NCBI RefSeq assembly: GCF_000179635.2
Contig: NC_014833.1
Coordinates: 3,330,001-3,362,000, forward strand
From: Ruminococcus albus 7 = DSM 20455
GTDB lineage: Bacteria; Bacillota; Clostridia; Oscillospirales; Ruminococcaceae
Direction of reading: 5' to 3'
Length of the DNA: 32,000 nt
Under the pieces are notes generated by a model. That model searched no databases and was not told the origin of the DNA. It was given only the letters and a program-made list of their open reading frames with translations. Below are positions 9,798 to 30,659 of the stretch, in pieces (the stretch's first letter is position 1; the number at the start of each line of letters is the position of its first letter). Position numbers and translations under genes: made by a program.

Positions 9798-10645
9798 CAC
9801 TTCACCTCTATCTCATAACCATAGCTGAATACTTCCCCTGCGCCAAGCTTTACAGCGTGAGGCTTTTTCTCAATATCGGGATAAGCATCATCAGCATACA
9901 CAGGCACAGATGTCCAAGGTTCAAGGCATACGAATGCCGCCCTGTCATCTCCCGTAGGTGACCACACTGCTATGCACTCCGACTGCGGATACTTAACCGT
10001 CACCGCCCTTTCGGACTTTCTGCTTTTCAGCGTAACAGCCTTTGACTCGGGCTTGTCGATAATTATAGCATCATTGTCGAACAGCGCCCTTGTCACCGCA
10101 AGCACATTTCCGTTCTCCGCAAGGACATTTCCTGCGGCATCGAATATATGCTCATTCTTTTCGTATACTATATCATAGTCCTCAAAGCTTTCGCCCTCTT
10201 CCAGCGGACAGTTGAACGCAGGGTGTCCCCCGATATAGAAATACATATCCCTGTCACCTGTGTTCTTAACAATATTTTCCACCCTTACACCGCTTTCCAG
10301 TGCCGTGTAACGGACGGTCAGTTCAAACTCATAAGGATACTGTGCAAGCGTATCCTCGTTTTCACGCAGCACGAAACTTATGGTATCCCCGTCCGTACCT
10401 GCATACTCAAACTCCATATCCCGTGCAAAGCCGTGATTGGCTTTCATCCTGTAGTCCTTTCCGTCAGCGCGGTAAGCCCTGCCCTCAGGCGAGCACACAA
10501 ATGGGAAAAGCACAGGCGCATAACGCTTCCATGCATCACCGCACTGCCAGAGGTATTCCCTGCCCCCATGTTTTACAGAATGCAGCTCTGCCCCGAATGT
10601 ATCCGCCGATATCTCGGTATTTCCGTTCTTTACTGAATATAACAT
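9797..10645 (-). CDS. Aldose 1-epimerase family protein (LacX-like mutarotase)
   Basis: 282 aa. It has [14 protein letters not shown] and GGHPAFNCP motifs and the beta-sandwich composition of the aldose-epimerase superfamily. GGAGG RBS. Confidence 0.75.
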
Positions 10646-10825
10646 AGTTATATACCTCCATTCATTACTGTTAATAGTTTACCATATTCTCCCCCATAAT
10701 GCAAGCGCATACCACCGTTTCCCCACGCATAAAAACGCCCTTGTGTGATGCGACGGTACTCATCCCACAAACCCGTATCCAAACAGAAATTTAACTCTTT
10801 CGGGCAGCGCGGAAATTTTTATAAT

Positions 10826-11019
10826 ATGGTCATCCCGCTGATGTACCATATTAATCGGTCTTGTATCGAAGCCTTAATCACCAGCACAATGTTTCATTAT
10901 TATATTTGATTATCCCGTTTACACACCAATTGATTTGGTGTAATATCAGAACCAGAAATGCTCGGCGGTTATCCTTTGTTATATAGCACTTTGCGGTGTT
11001 GCGTCAAAGGGATGACCAT
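10826..11019. mobile_element. MITE-like intergenic element, copy 1 (alternative reading: structured ncRNA)
   Basis: Perfect 11-bp terminal inverted repeat: ATGGTCATCCC (10826-10836) and GGGATGACCAT (11009-11019). The identical 8-mer TTTTATAA lies just outside each end (10817-10824 and 11021-11028). There is no ORF inside. Both ends recur at 30466-30591. Confidence 0.45.
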
Positions 11020-11030
11020 GTTTTATAAAG

Positions 11031-11078
11031 AAAGAAAAAACAGAGGATAGCTACGTTTGCAAACATAGCTGTCCTCTG
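11031..11078 (-). terminator. Rho-independent terminator of the GGDEF gene
   Basis: Stem CAGAGGA(C/T)AGCTA / TAGCT(A/G)TCCTCTG (11041-11078). On the minus strand it is followed by TTTTTTCTTT. Confidence 0.75.
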
Positions 11079-12238: not shown

Positions 12239-12280
12239 ACTCTCACTTCACTTTCATAATGAGATCCTTGATTTGTATAA

Positions 12281-12309
12281 TTATAACATATCAAACCGAT
12301 TTAGTCAAT
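12281..12309 (-). promoter_or_regulatory. Candidate sigma-A promoter of the GGDEF gene
   Basis: On the minus strand, TTGACT (12304-12309), a 17-nt spacer, then TATAAT (12281-12286), about 40 nt upstream of the ATG. Confidence 0.5.
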
Positions 12310-12396
12310 GATTTCATGCAATGTAATTAAAAATTCATATTGTTATCTGATAAAACAAAAAAATGCCGTAAATCGGTTGATAGCCATTCATATAAA

Positions 12397-12449
12397 GTAT
12401 AATAAAATGCGGAGGACATCCATACTATAATAGTACGGCTATCCCCCGC
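12397..12449 (-). terminator. Candidate terminator downstream of radC
   Basis: Long interrupted hairpin: GCGGAGGA ... TCCCCCGC with an inner stem CCATACTAT / ATAGTACGG (12409-12449). On the minus strand it is followed by ATTTTATTAT. Confidence 0.45.
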
Positions 12450-12577
12450 AAATTCCATATAAAAGTTTTAGGTAGTGGGTTCAGCATAGCGAAGCTGACG
12501 CTTAGGAAAACCCTTTTTCAAAAGGTTTTTCCCCGAGAGAATGTCCCGATACACGTAGTACAGCCCTGTGAGCCAAG

Positions 12578-18402: not shown

Positions 18403-18431
18403 TTGATTTTTGAATTGAAGGGTGATATAAT
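18403..18431 (+). promoter_or_regulatory. Candidate sigma-A promoter of the first cyclophilin gene
   Basis: TTGATT (18403-18408), a 17-nt spacer, then TATAAT (18426-18431). This places the TTG start of the tracked ORF inside the -10 box and favours the ATG at 18461. Confidence 0.5.
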
Positions 18432-18460
18432 TGAGAGGTCAGGATCAAATACGGAAGGGA

Positions 18461-19189
18461 ATGAGTGATCTGAAATATTACGGTATGATCTCAGCGCTGA
18501 AAGCTATGGCGCTGACAGTGGCAGTGACACTTGCCTGCGGTGCGTTCGCATCCTGCGGCAGCACAGACACTGATAATGGCGCTAAGGCATCTGACAGAAA
18601 GGATGCTTCGGTACAGACTATCGACAGCAGCGCTGACACAGTCACTACAGGTGACGAGGATATCTCGGAGAACAGCTTTGTTATAACCCTGCGTGAGGAC
18701 AAAGCACCTATCACCTGCAAGAATTTTAAAAAGCTGGTAAACAGCGGTTTCTATGACGGACTGACATTCCATAGGGTGATCGACGGGTTCATGGCACAGG
18801 GCGGTGACCCCGAGGGCAACGGTACAGGCGGCTCGGGTGAGAACATCAAGGGCGAGTTTGACAGCAACGGTGTTGAAAACGACCTGAAGCACGTAAGAGG
18901 AACGGTATCCATGGCGAGATCACAGGATCCCGACAGCGCTTCGAGCCAGTTCTTTATCTGCTATGATGACTGCGCTGCACTTGACGGTGATTATGCTGCA
19001 TTCGGACAGGTGACGGAGGGCATGGAGGTAGTTGACAGGTTCCTGAACGTTGAAAGGACTATGGGACAGGATGGACAGATATCTTCTCCCGTAACACCCA
19101 TAACCATAACCGATGCGGAAATGCTATCTTCAGATGCTGACGGTCATGACAGAGCGATATTTACTGTGGAATTTTCAGAGGAGCAGTAA
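18461..19189 (+). CDS. Cyclophilin-type peptidyl-prolyl isomerase lipoprotein (one PPIase domain)
   Basis: Signal peptide with lipobox AFASC, then a Ser/Asp/Thr-rich linker. The cyclophilin core has [22 protein letters not shown] and SQFFI. The ATG at 18461 has the RBS GGAAGGGA. Confidence 0.9.
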
Positions 19190-19219
19190 AGGGATACGTA
19201 AAACTTGATAAGAAAGGAA

Positions 19220-20467
19220 ATGAATGATTTGAAAAATAACAGGATCAGAAAAGCGCTGAAAGTAATGGCGCTGACATTGGCTATGACACTGACCTGCGGT
19301 GCGTTCGCATCCTGCGGGAACACAGACAAGAAGAATGACTCGAAGGCAGCTGACAAAAAGGATGCTGCGGCACAGACAGATGATAAGGGCGGTGACGCAG
19401 TTACTTCCGGCGATGAGGATGCTTCGGAGGACAGCTTTGTGATAACCCTGCGTGAGGACAAGGCACCCATAAGCTGTGAGAATTTTGAAAAGCTGGTAAG
19501 CAGCGGTTTCTATGACGGAGTTACCTTCCACAGAGTAGTGGCAGGTTTCATGGCACAGGGCGGCGACCCTGAGGGCACAGGTGCAGGCGGCTCGGGTGAG
19601 AACATCAAGGGCGAGTTCAGCGCGAATGGTGTCGAGAATGACCTGAAGCATCAGAGAGGCACCGTATCCATGGCGAGATCACAGGACAACGACAGTGCTT
19701 CAAGCCAGTTCTTTATCTGCTATGATGACTGCGATTTCCTTGACGGCAACTATGCGGCATTCGGTGAAGTATCACAGGGCATGGAGGTAGTTGACAAGTT
19801 CCTCAACTGCGACAGACAGATGAATCAGAACTATGAGCTGGCTGAGCCCGTAAAGCCCATTACAATAACCAAGGCTGAGATGATAGATCCCGATACCGAC
19901 GGCCATAAGAGAGCGAAGTTCACAGTAAACTTCACAGAGAGAGAGTTCAAGGAAGGCGAGTTCACCATAACTCTCCGCGCTGACAAGGCTCCCATAACCT
20001 GTGAGAACTTTAAAAAGCTGGTAAAGGAAGGCTTCTATGACGGACTGACATTCCACCGCGTCGTTGATGACTTCATGGCACAGGGCGGAGATCCTGAGGG
20101 AACAGGCATGGGCGGTTCTTCTGAGACTATCAAGGGCGAGTTCAGCGAGAACGGTGTTGAGAATGATCTCAAGCACGTAAGAGGCACAGTATCCATGGCA
20201 AGATCAAGCGATCCTGACAGCGCTTCAAGCCAGTTCTTCATCTGCTTTACCGACTGCGCTTTCCTTGACGGACAGTATGCGGCTTTCGGTGAAGTAAGTG
20301 AGGGCATGGAAGTTGTTGACGGCTTCACTACCGTATCACGCGGTTACTCACAGTCTTCAAACCCTGAGCTTTCCGCACCCGGAACACCTATCACCATAAT
20401 CAAGGCTGAAATGGCTGATCCTGATGCTGACGGAAATGACAGAGTAAAATTCACAGTTAAATACTGA
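19220..20467 (+). CDS. Cyclophilin-type PPIase lipoprotein with two tandem PPIase domains
   Basis: The signal peptide and lipobox are nearly identical to the preceding gene. Two complete cyclophilin cores follow ([15 protein letters not shown] ... SQFFICY and [15 protein letters not shown] ... SQFFICF). The ATG at 19220 has the RBS AAAGGAA. Confidence 0.9.
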   Translation: MNDLKNNRIRKALKVMALTLAMTLTCGAFASCGNTDKKNDSKAADKKDAAAQTDDKGGDAVTSGDEDASEDSFVITLREDKAPISCENFEKLVSSGFYDGVTFHRVVAGFMAQGGDPEGTGAGGSGENIKGEFSANGVENDLKHQRGTVSMARSQDNDSASSQFFICYDDCDFLDGNYAAFGEVSQGMEVVDKFLNCDRQMNQNYELAEPVKPITITKAEMIDPDTDGHKRAKFTVNFTEREFKEGEFTITLRADKAPITCENFKKLVKEGFYDGLTFHRVVDDFMAQGGDPEGTGMGGSSETIKGEFSENGVENDLKHVRGTVSMARSSDPDSASSQFFICFTDCAFLDGQYAAFGEVSEGMEVVDGFTTVSRGYSQSSNPELSAPGTPITIIKAEMADPDADGNDRVKFTVKY

Positions 20468-26403: not shown

Positions 26404-26530
26404 ATGACCTCCTTCAGATCCGCAGCGAAATTTTTCGGACAAATGCCGCCCTTATCCACAGCAATATTCGCCCTATATCTATTATAAACAAACAATGTAC
26501 AGCTGCTTTATTTATTGTTACCGAGCAGCT

Positions 26531-27350
26531 CTTATTTATACATTTTTCTGTCCATTTATTAATGATCTTTGTCTATATGGGAATTATTTCCACCAAATTT
26601 TAAGCATTCTTGCTAATTCACCTATTAATAAAACGTTTCCATTGTTGTATTATACAATTTGAGTTAAATAGTTTAAACAATCGACCGCCGACCATTTTTA
26701 GCTCACGCTCTTATCATCACCGCAATTTTCAGTCATCCCCCGACGAAAACCATTACCGAAAATTTGCGTTCCGAATCTCATCATAAACCTTCGCTCCAAA
26801 AATTATATACAAAAAATGTACGTTTTATCACCCTCTCATGTCATAACAGAGGTTGTTTGTACTTGTTTTTTATCGTTTATTAATGAAGTATAAACTTCTT
26901 CCATATTTTTCCACTACTTTTTATCCTTCTTTGCTTAAACCATAGTTCAGAAAACGTTTTCGATGGCATTTCGCACAATCGCCCAAAATGCCCTTTTTGC
27001 CCCATTCCGACCTCTGAAATTTGTGTACAAAAATTGTATAGTCCTCTTCAAAAGTATTACCTCGCAAGCCTTATTTTATACAGATTTCTTCCTAATTATT
27101 AAAGGATTTTTACCTATTGTAAGATTTTTCCAGTAGTTTTTAAGCATTATTGCTAATTCATTCGTTCAGATAACCATTCTATTGACACAATCTACAATTC
27201 AAATTGTGAACACCACTTCACAATTTTCTCCGCCGATTAATTAACCGCTCGACGGGGAAATTACATCCAATGCACCAGGACTTCATATTTTCACTGCTCC
27301 ATTAATTGACACCTCCCGACCGTATCTTCACCATATCATATCCCCCTCTA
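26531..27350. repeat. Three degenerate tandem repeat units (about 320, 220 and 280 bp) in non-coding DNA
   Basis: Collinear anchors recur with fixed offsets of +321 and then +219 nt. TTATTAA is at 26556, 26877 and 27096. TTTCCA is at 26587, 26908 and 27127. AAACGTTT is at 26631 and 26952. TTTTAAGCATT(C/A)TTGCTAATTCA is at 26598-26620 and 27138-27160 (22 of 23 identical). Confidence 0.55.
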
Positions 27351-27501
27351 TATAATAGAAGCCACCGCGCACACAATACCAAAGTCACCCGTTTATCGCT
27401 TAAATGAACTGCCTTGTTGTGCAAAATATCCTACTTCGTGCAACAAAATGTCTTTTCGGTTGTGCAATCACACAAAACATTTTAAATCTTGCAATATTAT
27501 A

Positions 27502-27530
27502 TTGACAAATGATATTATACGTCGTATAAT
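27502..27530 (+). promoter_or_regulatory. Consensus sigma-A promoter of the padR operon
   Basis: TTGACA (27502-27507), a 17-nt spacer, then TATAAT (27525-27530), about 135 nt upstream of padR. Confidence 0.7.
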
Positions 27531-27535
27531 ATCAT
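27509..27535. promoter_or_regulatory. Perfect 27-bp palindrome overlapping the promoter spacer and -10 box (candidate operator)
   Basis: ATGATATTATACG-T-CGTATAATATCAT has 13-bp arms with no mismatch. Its position fits autorepression by the downstream PadR-family regulator. Confidence 0.55.
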
Positions 27536-27665
27536 CAGAGCAAAGATATTGCACAACTCAAAATACTGTGAGAGAAAATATATTACACAGTATACTGCAC
27601 TGCAGAGCAAAAGAGACGAGATGACACAAAACAAAAGAAACGCCTTAGGGCAAGGAGAATGACTT

Positions 27666-29729: not shown

Positions 29730-30458
29730 ATGACCAAAGATATAAAAAAAGAGCGCGTATGGAAAAAAGGCAGAACAACAAGCGCGGCAAGTCTGGCAAA
29801 ACAGCGTGAGAATGACATCGTAAGCCTTACTATGGGCGCCATGGGCAGCATTGTAGGTGTGTTCATGCTGTATATGTTCAACACAAAAATAGCAAATATG
29901 CCCGTCCCGCTTCGCGCCCCTCTGATGTTCGTCCTTTACTGGGCTGTCGCTGTGATACCGATAATAATTATCCGTCAGGATAAAATGCGCCCTGCCGACC
30001 TTGGATTTGAAAAGGAAGGTATCATCAGACAGATACTTATCGGCATCGGACTGGGTCTTGCGACCTCACTTGTGCTGACAGGCATACCTGTTCTCGCAGG
30101 CTTCGGAGAGTACGTAAACAGCGGCAAGTCCTATGACGAATTATGGAAGTTCGTATACGAATTCGCTTACTGCATACTTTCGGTAGGCGCCGCAGAGGAA
30201 CTGGTTTTCCGCGGCTTTATATACAGTAAACTGAAAAGCCTTTTCGGCAAAGAGATATATGCCGTCGTAGGTTCGTCCCTCCTCTTCGGACTTTTCCATG
30301 TATTCAGAGGAAATATAGCACAGATCTTCGTCACCGCAGTGATAGGCTTCATATTCTGCACCTACAAAAATAAGATAAAGGGCTGTACACTCCTGTCACT
30401 GATGATATGCCACGGCGTATACGATGCCATGATAACCGTATGGGCATTGTACAAATAA
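29730..30458 (+). CDS. CPBP family intramembrane glutamic endopeptidase (CAAX protease-like)
   Basis: Polytopic membrane protein with the three CPBP motifs: AAEELVFRGFIY, FGLFH and HGVYD. Confidence 0.85.
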   Translation: MTKDIKKERVWKKGRTTSAASLAKQRENDIVSLTMGAMGSIVGVFMLYMFNTKIANMPVPLRAPLMFVLYWAVAVIPIIIIRQDKMRPADLGFEKEGIIRQILIGIGLGLATSLVLTGIPVLAGFGEYVNSGKSYDELWKFVYEFAYCILSVGAAEELVFRGFIYSKLKSLFGKEIYAVVGSSLLFGLFHVFRGNIAQIFVTAVIGFIFCTYKNKIKGCTLLSLMICHGVYDAMITVWALYK

Positions 30459-30465
30459 AAATATA

Positions 30466-30591
30466 GGCATCCTGCTGATACACCAAATTAACCGCAGTTA
30501 TCCTTTACCCGCCGCAGGCGGGGAAAGGATAACATAAACACGACGTTCCCTGGTATATAGCACTTTGTGGTGATGTGATAAAGGGATGACC
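30466..30591. mobile_element. MITE-like intergenic element, copy 2 (alternative reading: structured ncRNA)
   Basis: The left end GGCATCCTGCTGATACACCAAATTAACCG and the right end GTATATAGCACTTTGTGGTGATGTGATAAAGGGATGACC match the ends of 10826-11019. It contains the hairpin GTTATCCTTT-ACCCGCC-GCAG-GCGGGG-AAAGGATAAC. The identical 11-mer AAATAAAAATA flanks it (30453-30463 and 30594-30604). Confidence 0.45.
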
Positions 30592-30659
30592 GTAAATAAA
30601 AATAAAAGCGTCCTGCAATAAATAAAGAGAATGCAGGCATAATAAAGGAGAAAACAAAC

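Follow-up and report, generated by a model that had tools for sequence, protein, structure and literature searches.

Non-autonomous elements of the MITE type have been described in several bacterial lineages, among them MIC231, derived from IS231, in the Bacillus cereus group, RUP in Streptococcus pneumoniae, the Correia or NEMIS elements of Neisseria and the ERIC or IRU elements of enterobacteria. Correia and RUP-type elements give a TA dinucleotide duplication. A second class of short intergenic repeats, the REPs, comprises imperfect palindromes of about 20-40 nt that lack target-site duplications and are usually clustered. Among insertion sequences, IS10 and IS50 make 9-bp duplications, and the preferred target of IS10 is NGCTNAGCN.

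Here, we analyze a stretch of 32,000 nucleotides from the chromosome of Ruminococcus albus 7, referred to below as the window, and report that positions 10826-11020 form, with a probability that we put at roughly 85%, one copy of a non-coding, non-autonomous MITE family. About 52 kb, comprising the window and 10 kb on either side, holds three dispersed copies in both orientations (195 nt for copy 1, 132 nt for copy 2 and 105 nt for copy 3, all below ~500 bp) that have their terminal sequences in common. Like the known bacterial MITEs, these units measure 100-200 nt, have no coding capacity, lie between genes, carry terminal inverted repeats and target-site duplications, can be folded whole as a hairpin and occur as length variants within one family. 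No sequence similarity to MIC231, RUP, Correia/NEMIS or ERIC/IRU was detected. The R. albus family also differs from Correia and RUP elements in its duplication, which is 9 bp long and AT-rich, and from known bacterial MITEs in general by the two tandem left-end modules of copy 1 and by a distribution confined, as far as we saw, to the R. albus 7 lineage, apart from a doubtful degenerate end in one relative. A MITE is an ordinary kind of element, and this family appears to be undescribed: we found no R. albus MITE or insertion sequence in the literature, where the terminal sequences searched as text returned only unrelated primer coincidences.

Copy 1 extends over 10826-11020 on the plus strand, with boundaries taken from an alignment of seven ends (the six outer ends of the three copies and one inner end). 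It is located between two minus-strand genes, a GGDEF diguanylate cyclase gene upstream and an aldose 1-epimerase gene downstream. As context, the GGDEF gene is followed by a terminator-like palindrome (11041-11078, minus strand, 92% complementary) and a T-run, and the target 9-mer of copy 1 lies 12-20 nt downstream of this palindrome. The window lies on JHYT01000002.1 (assembly GCA_000621285.1), its proteins are identical to those of R. albus 7 = DSM 20455, and the close strains L003 and L011 carry copy 1 at the identical site.

An earlier sequence-only reading had delimited the element as 194 bp bounded by perfect 11-bp terminal inverted repeats. Those ends are exact, ATGGTCATCCC at 10826-10836 being the reverse complement of GGGATGACCAT at 11009-11019, but the aligned element is 195 nt long and its inverted repeats are imperfect and span ~23-24 nt. 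Composition-preserving shuffles of the window moreover contain, on average, about 2.1 perfect 11-mer inverted repeats within 300 nt, a second one is present in the real window inside coding sequence, and the 11-bp repeat has no significance by itself. Since it stands at chance level, the case rests on the recurrence of the family and on the flanking duplications. The 8-bp duplication proposed by the same reading, TTTTATAA at 10817-10824 and 11021-11028, is present as well, but the aligned ends turn it into a 9-bp duplication matching at 8/9 positions (TTTTATAAT at 10817-10825 and TTTTATAAA at 11021-11029). When the AT-rich flanks were shuffled, the procedure used for all duplication p values given here, a match of this quality had a p of 3.5e-5 at the exact offset and of 5.6e-4 with 2 nt of slack.

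At the outer left end of copy 1, the terminal inverted repeat (ATGGTCATCCCGCTGATGTACCA, 10826-10848, plus strand) matches the left-end profile with an E value of 1.5e-7. The right terminal inverted repeat (10997-11020, minus strand, reverse complement CATGGTCATCCCTTTGACGCAACA) is defined by the inverted pair, the end alignment and the profile, and it belongs to a right subterminal block found in all three copies through right-end profile hits (...GTTATATAGCACTTTG...AAAGGGATGACCATG, here 10958-11020, plus strand). Between the two ends, an inner left-end module (TTGATTATCCCGTTTACACACCAATTGATTTGGTGT, 10906-10941, plus strand; left-end profile E 2.1e-7) is near-identical to the left end of copy 3 and holds the hairpin ACACCAA/TTGGTGT at 10923-10941, which had been correctly described. 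As read from the sequence, this module has no flanking duplication of its own and is therefore placed inside the transposed unit. The outer left end gives the best pairing with the right end of copy 1 (18/23 identical once the latter is reverse-complemented) and adjoins the duplicated 9-mer. In its modules, copy 1 is a composite of an outer left end and a copy-3-like core bearing the inner left end, and because the outer end both pairs best and adjoins the 9-mer while the inner one lacks a duplication, the 195-nt unit probably moved whole. Further inside, an internal repeat of the terminal motif (GGTTATCCTTTG, 10967-10978, plus strand) is present as the sequence-only reading had reported; its ability to pair with the right end gives rise to the alternative helix discussed below.

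The same reading had noticed a second copy in the same orientation at 30466-30591. This copy is real, and its aligned bounds are 30463-30594 (plus strand). It lies between two plus-strand genes, encoding a CPBP-type protease and then an alpha/beta hydrolase, and the close strains L013-L017 and L020 carry it too. At the right end, identity to copy 1 is 85% over 41 nt and 76% over 58 nt, and the left ~35 nt match the profile of left ends. Its inverted repeats are more decayed, agreeing at 13/24 positions. The flanking 9-mer AATAAAAAT is repeated without mismatch (9/9) at 30454-30462, where it overlaps the stop codon of the upstream protease gene, and at 30595-30603, with a p of 4e-5 at the exact offset, rising to 2.9e-4 when 2 nt of slack are allowed. 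The interior of copy 2 holds a central G+C-rich hairpin (GTTATCCTTTACCCGCCGCAGGCGGGGAAAGGATAAC, 30497-30533, plus strand), identified by folding and self-matching, that has no counterpart in copies 1 and 3. In copy 2, GTTATCCTTT at 30497-30506 is homologous to GGTTATCCTTTG of copy 1 and contains the motif GRTYATCC, which recurs inverted at 30524-30533.

Copy 3 was found by extending the sequence rightward through the hydrolase gene. It lies 535 nt past the end of the window (L013 11876-11980, equivalent to window 32535-32639), in the opposite orientation, between a PspC-domain gene, whose terminator-like hairpin it directly follows, and a LicD gene downstream. It is flanked by two identical copies of the 9-mer ATTATGTAA (9/9; p of 9.5e-5 with 2 nt of slack), and its inverted repeats are identical at 17/23 positions. 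The match of copy 3 to copy 1 is confined to the right 115 nt of the latter, with 78-79% identity over 117-125 nt, the internal junction included.

The three copies thus have imperfect terminal inverted repeats of ~23-24 nt, and the seven aligned ends yield a terminal consensus of ~24 nt, (C)ATGGTYATCCCkyTGAyrcAcCA. Beyond this consensus, each side has its own block conserved between copies, CCAWATTAAYnnG on the left and GTTATATAGnnCTTT... on the right; the right-end profile recovers the three copies with E values of 1.5e-13, 4.7e-13 and 4.5e-11. The sequences that flank the copies are unlike one another, so that ends are conserved while flanks differ, and a 9-bp direct repeat is found at all three. 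These AT-rich 9-mers differ in sequence between copies, each is in register with the aligned ends, and the joint probability of the three flanking duplications is ~1e-11. Three different duplicated 9-mers in register with aligned ends are the signature of insertion through a 9-bp staggered cut. Three copies, each with its own 9-bp repeats and differing flanks, uphold the view that this segment belongs to a MITE-like family bearing terminal inverted repeats and a target-site duplication.

No transposase gene was called in the window, as had been noted, nor within 10 kb on either side of it. We propose that a DDE-type transposase, encoded elsewhere or lost, would bind the ~23-24-bp imperfect ends and probably the internal GRTYATCC repeats too. 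Acting in trans, this enzyme would excise or copy the unit and, by a staggered cut of 9 bp, insert it into AT-rich intergenic targets; repair of the cut would leave the 9-bp direct repeats. Copy 1 would have moved as one unit by means of its outer left end, the inner left end being carried along as a passenger or serving as an extra binding site.

The ends of the family offer some indication of what the partner may be. In the IS4 family (IS10/ISVsa5 and the IS186/IS231 group), which has transposases of the DDE_Tnp_1 type and 9-12-bp duplications, ends begin with 5'-CT or 5'-CAT, to be compared with CTGATTATCCC and CATGGTCATCCC in R. albus. On plasmid R100 we verified the IS10 end CTGATGAATCCCC beside a gene for an IS4-like transposase, and in E. 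coli K-12 the IS186 end CATAAGCGC. The R. albus termini CATGG and CTGAT, together with the 9-bp duplication, fit the IS4 family, although the similarity to IS10 and IS186 ends, noticed after the fact, is short, with only ~11-12 of the 18 terminal bases alike, and the targets are AT-rich 9-mers, unlike the preferred target of IS10. The gene calls of the ~52 kb contain no IS4-type transposase gene with R. albus ends. Assignment of the partner to the IS4 family is a lead only, and other families with 8-10-bp duplications (ISAs1, IS1, IS256 and the IS903 group) may also be candidates.

Among close strains (at least 98.6% protein identity), we found no polymorphism between filled and empty sites, every contig, whether from isolate runs or metagenomes, being filled. 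In several independent runs, the short-read (Logan) contigs stop at shared positions within copies 1 and 3 (window 10936-10948 and L013 ~11960), as expected because repeats break assemblies. Relatives at ~80% protein identity have no copies at the corresponding intergenic regions: the protease and hydrolase genes are separated by 26 nt in L019 versus 201 nt in R. albus 7; L018 and L019 are without copy 3, yet the downstream ATGAGGATTCAGCATAAATTT is conserved; and in four relatives (L025-L028) the regions upstream of the epimerase gene measure 75-87 nt, have other neighbors and lack the element. Absence in these relatives is consistent with insertion, although their flanks are too diverged to display a single unduplicated 9-mer. 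For copy 1, no empty site was found among the relatives, all of which differ in synteny upstream of the epimerase gene, R. albus AD2013 being rearranged there. At window ~12239-12577, the GC skew of the plus strand flips from about -0.2 to about +0.08, although the neighboring genes on either side are all minus-strand genes; synteny with L018 and AD2013 (L024) breaks at the same point, which suggests a past inversion.

A profile search of all fetched loci returned no further copies, save for one doubtful end in L018. There, positions 19484-19540 resemble a degenerate mini-copy of ~57 nt (TACGGTTATCCCACTGACACATCA...GAGGATAACTAT) with flanks agreeing at 7/9 positions and a profile E of 0.15; 19/24 positions are like the right end of copy 2, a match we regard as doubtful. 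A collection-wide search of genomes and metagenomes with the pattern TATAGCACTTTGN{8,20}AAAGGGATG recovered the same locus in strain L011 and chance hits in L001 (in coding sequence), L010 and L012; the pattern represents a right-end subtype and is too specific, as copy 3 and a SNP in strain L020 indicate. Three patterns had no match in viral contigs, and BLAST searches with copies 1 and 3 gave nothing relevant among phages or in a plasmid collection that does not include those of R. albus 7. The family appears to be restricted to the R. albus 7 lineage.

Two further sets of repeats were noticed in the window. A 1.2-kb AT-rich, gene-free stretch between a SpoVAC-like gene and a PadR-family gene (26443-27665) contains three ~34-nt repeats resembling TTATTTATACATTTTTCTGTCCATTTATTAATGA and has a raised SNP density between strains (33 in 1298 nt). 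At 18431-20467, two adjacent peptidyl-prolyl isomerase genes carry ~300-nt direct repeats, spaced by 759 and 525 nt and 79-84% identical, which are repeated protein modules.

The position of the copies relative to transcription terminators deserves separate mention. Copies 1 and 3 have the same relative orientation, directly downstream of an intrinsic-terminator-like T-run and 5-20 nt from the stem, and copy 2 surrounds a G+C hairpin resembling a terminator, which in a relative marks the orthologous site as well. It is conceivable, but on our assessment unlikely, that the element or its transposase targets terminator structures, or that the hairpins have been co-opted for mRNA 3' ends or stability, with GRTYATCC forming a protein-binding array.

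The copies might also have arisen without small units ever having transposed: full-length insertion sequences would have inserted at the three sites and then lost their interiors in place. Such relics would equally yield inverted repeats and 9-bp duplications, the copies do differ in length and in interior sequence, and no active partner was found. Against this scenario, the inner part of copy 1 and copy 3 have the same junction, which independent deletions would not reproduce, and the internal GTTATCCTTT block is common to copies 1 and 2. Because internal sequence and junction are common to copies 1 and 3 at unrelated loci, a small unit must be taken to have propagated rather than insertion sequences to have decayed independently, and we consider decay in place improbable.

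We give still less credence to the possibility that the copies are palindromes maintained by the host, of the REP/BIME kind or associated with terminators, which spread by recombination or through RAYT-type enzymes and whose flanking repeats are accidental. The copies do resemble REP/BIME sequences (RAYT, Y1 transposases) as short intergenic palindromic repeats, often placed after terminators, the whole core folds as one long hairpin, and copies 1 and 3 directly follow intrinsic-terminator-like hairpins. The site of copy 2 is also relevant here, since in L018 (~80% protein identity) the orthologous position (9862-9990) is occupied by a different palindrome of ~100 nt (GATCAATTTTGAA...TTTCAAAATCGATC) around the same central hairpin, its center CCCGCCGCAGGCGG comprising 14 nt identical to the core of the hairpin in copy 2. 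Hairpins like CCCGCC-GNA-GGCGGG are also seen elsewhere, in L025 at 8560 and in L013 at 15655. The poor ends of copy 2 and the hairpin at the L018 site are at odds with a simple single-insertion history for this copy. However, accidental flanking repeats are difficult to reconcile with three of three copies having 9-bp direct repeats in register (each p < 6e-4), the ends consist of long asymmetric left and right modules unlike the short REP palindrome, and the units of 105-195 nt occur singly, with no tandem or clustered arrays. These features set the R. albus family apart from REP/BIME elements.

Equally remote, in our estimation, is the alternative that the segment is a structured non-coding RNA gene or a cis-regulatory leader in which terminal pairing and an inner helix form a switch. 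The sequence-only reading had pointed to two mutually exclusive helices. The right end can indeed pair with several partners, but it does so because the terminal motif GRTYATCC recurs inside the element, and the alternative helices are a product of this recurrence. Both strands fold better than shuffled sequence, with z-scores of -3.5 to -4.5, a property that does not discriminate since inverted-repeat elements all fold well. Two SNPs in strain L011 keep one plus-strand helix paired, changing U-G to C-G and G-C to G-U, and a single position is changed on both sides between copies. Yet the core has a consensus fold of one long hairpin, the covariation term of which is close to zero (-0.21 kcal/mol), and no covariation goes beyond the inverted-repeat pairing. 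No Rfam family matches in the window at the gathering score; weak hits around the three copies are at chance level, and sub-threshold hits, such as miRNA models on the neighboring terminator, are not meaningful. Where the terminal stems are mismatched, some positions become G-U on the plus strand and others on the minus strand, so that neither strand is favored. The orientation relative to genes varies too, copy 2 lying between plus-strand genes, copy 1 between minus-strand genes and copy 3 being inverted, and an RNA gene would leave the flanking 9-bp duplications unexplained.

Sequence variation between strains does not speak for an RNA either, SNP density not being reduced in the copies. Relative to a strain diverged by ~1%, copy 2 has 6 SNPs in 132 nt, which fall inside both of its supposedly conserved blocks, and copy 3 has none in 105 nt, compared with 1.7% in other intergenic sequence and 0.95% in coding sequence; copy 1 has 4 in 195 nt (2.05%, versus 1.0-1.8% overall). 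The copies look as if they evolve neutrally, with no sign of purifying selection. An RNA hairpin made from a copy that is co-transcribed with a neighboring gene would be a by-product.

Other functional readings of the segment fared no better. The description of copy 1 as free of open reading frames is right in that conserved coding sequence is absent, although short ORFs of at most 54 aa do overlap the element and are not conserved between copies. One ORF starts from an ATG inside the right end (MVIPLTQHRKVLYN...) and, between copies 1 and 3, has 7 of 11 changes at third positions (by hand count; p ~0.04 before correction for six frames); its stops differ between copies and the excess is absent between copies 1 and 2, so that a coding reading is rejected. 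A reading of TTATCC(A/C/T) as a DnaA box is a coincidence, the best case having two mismatches to TTATCCACA, and the numbers of promoter and terminator sites inside the copies, outward or inward, do not exceed those in shuffles. In copies 1 and 3, the inner left-end module contains a weak inward promoter-like site, TTTACA-17-TAATAT (9/12).

Taken together, our findings add to a well-studied cellulolytic bacterium of the rumen a MITE family that appears to be undescribed. The family accounts for contig breaks that recur when the R. albus 7 lineage is assembled from short reads, and it marks intergenic insertions that possibly alter operon structure, copy 2 expanding to 201 nt a gene junction that measures 26 nt in one relative. 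If the partner transposase is found, the ends and the 9-bp AT-rich target could be of modest use for Ruminococcus genetics.
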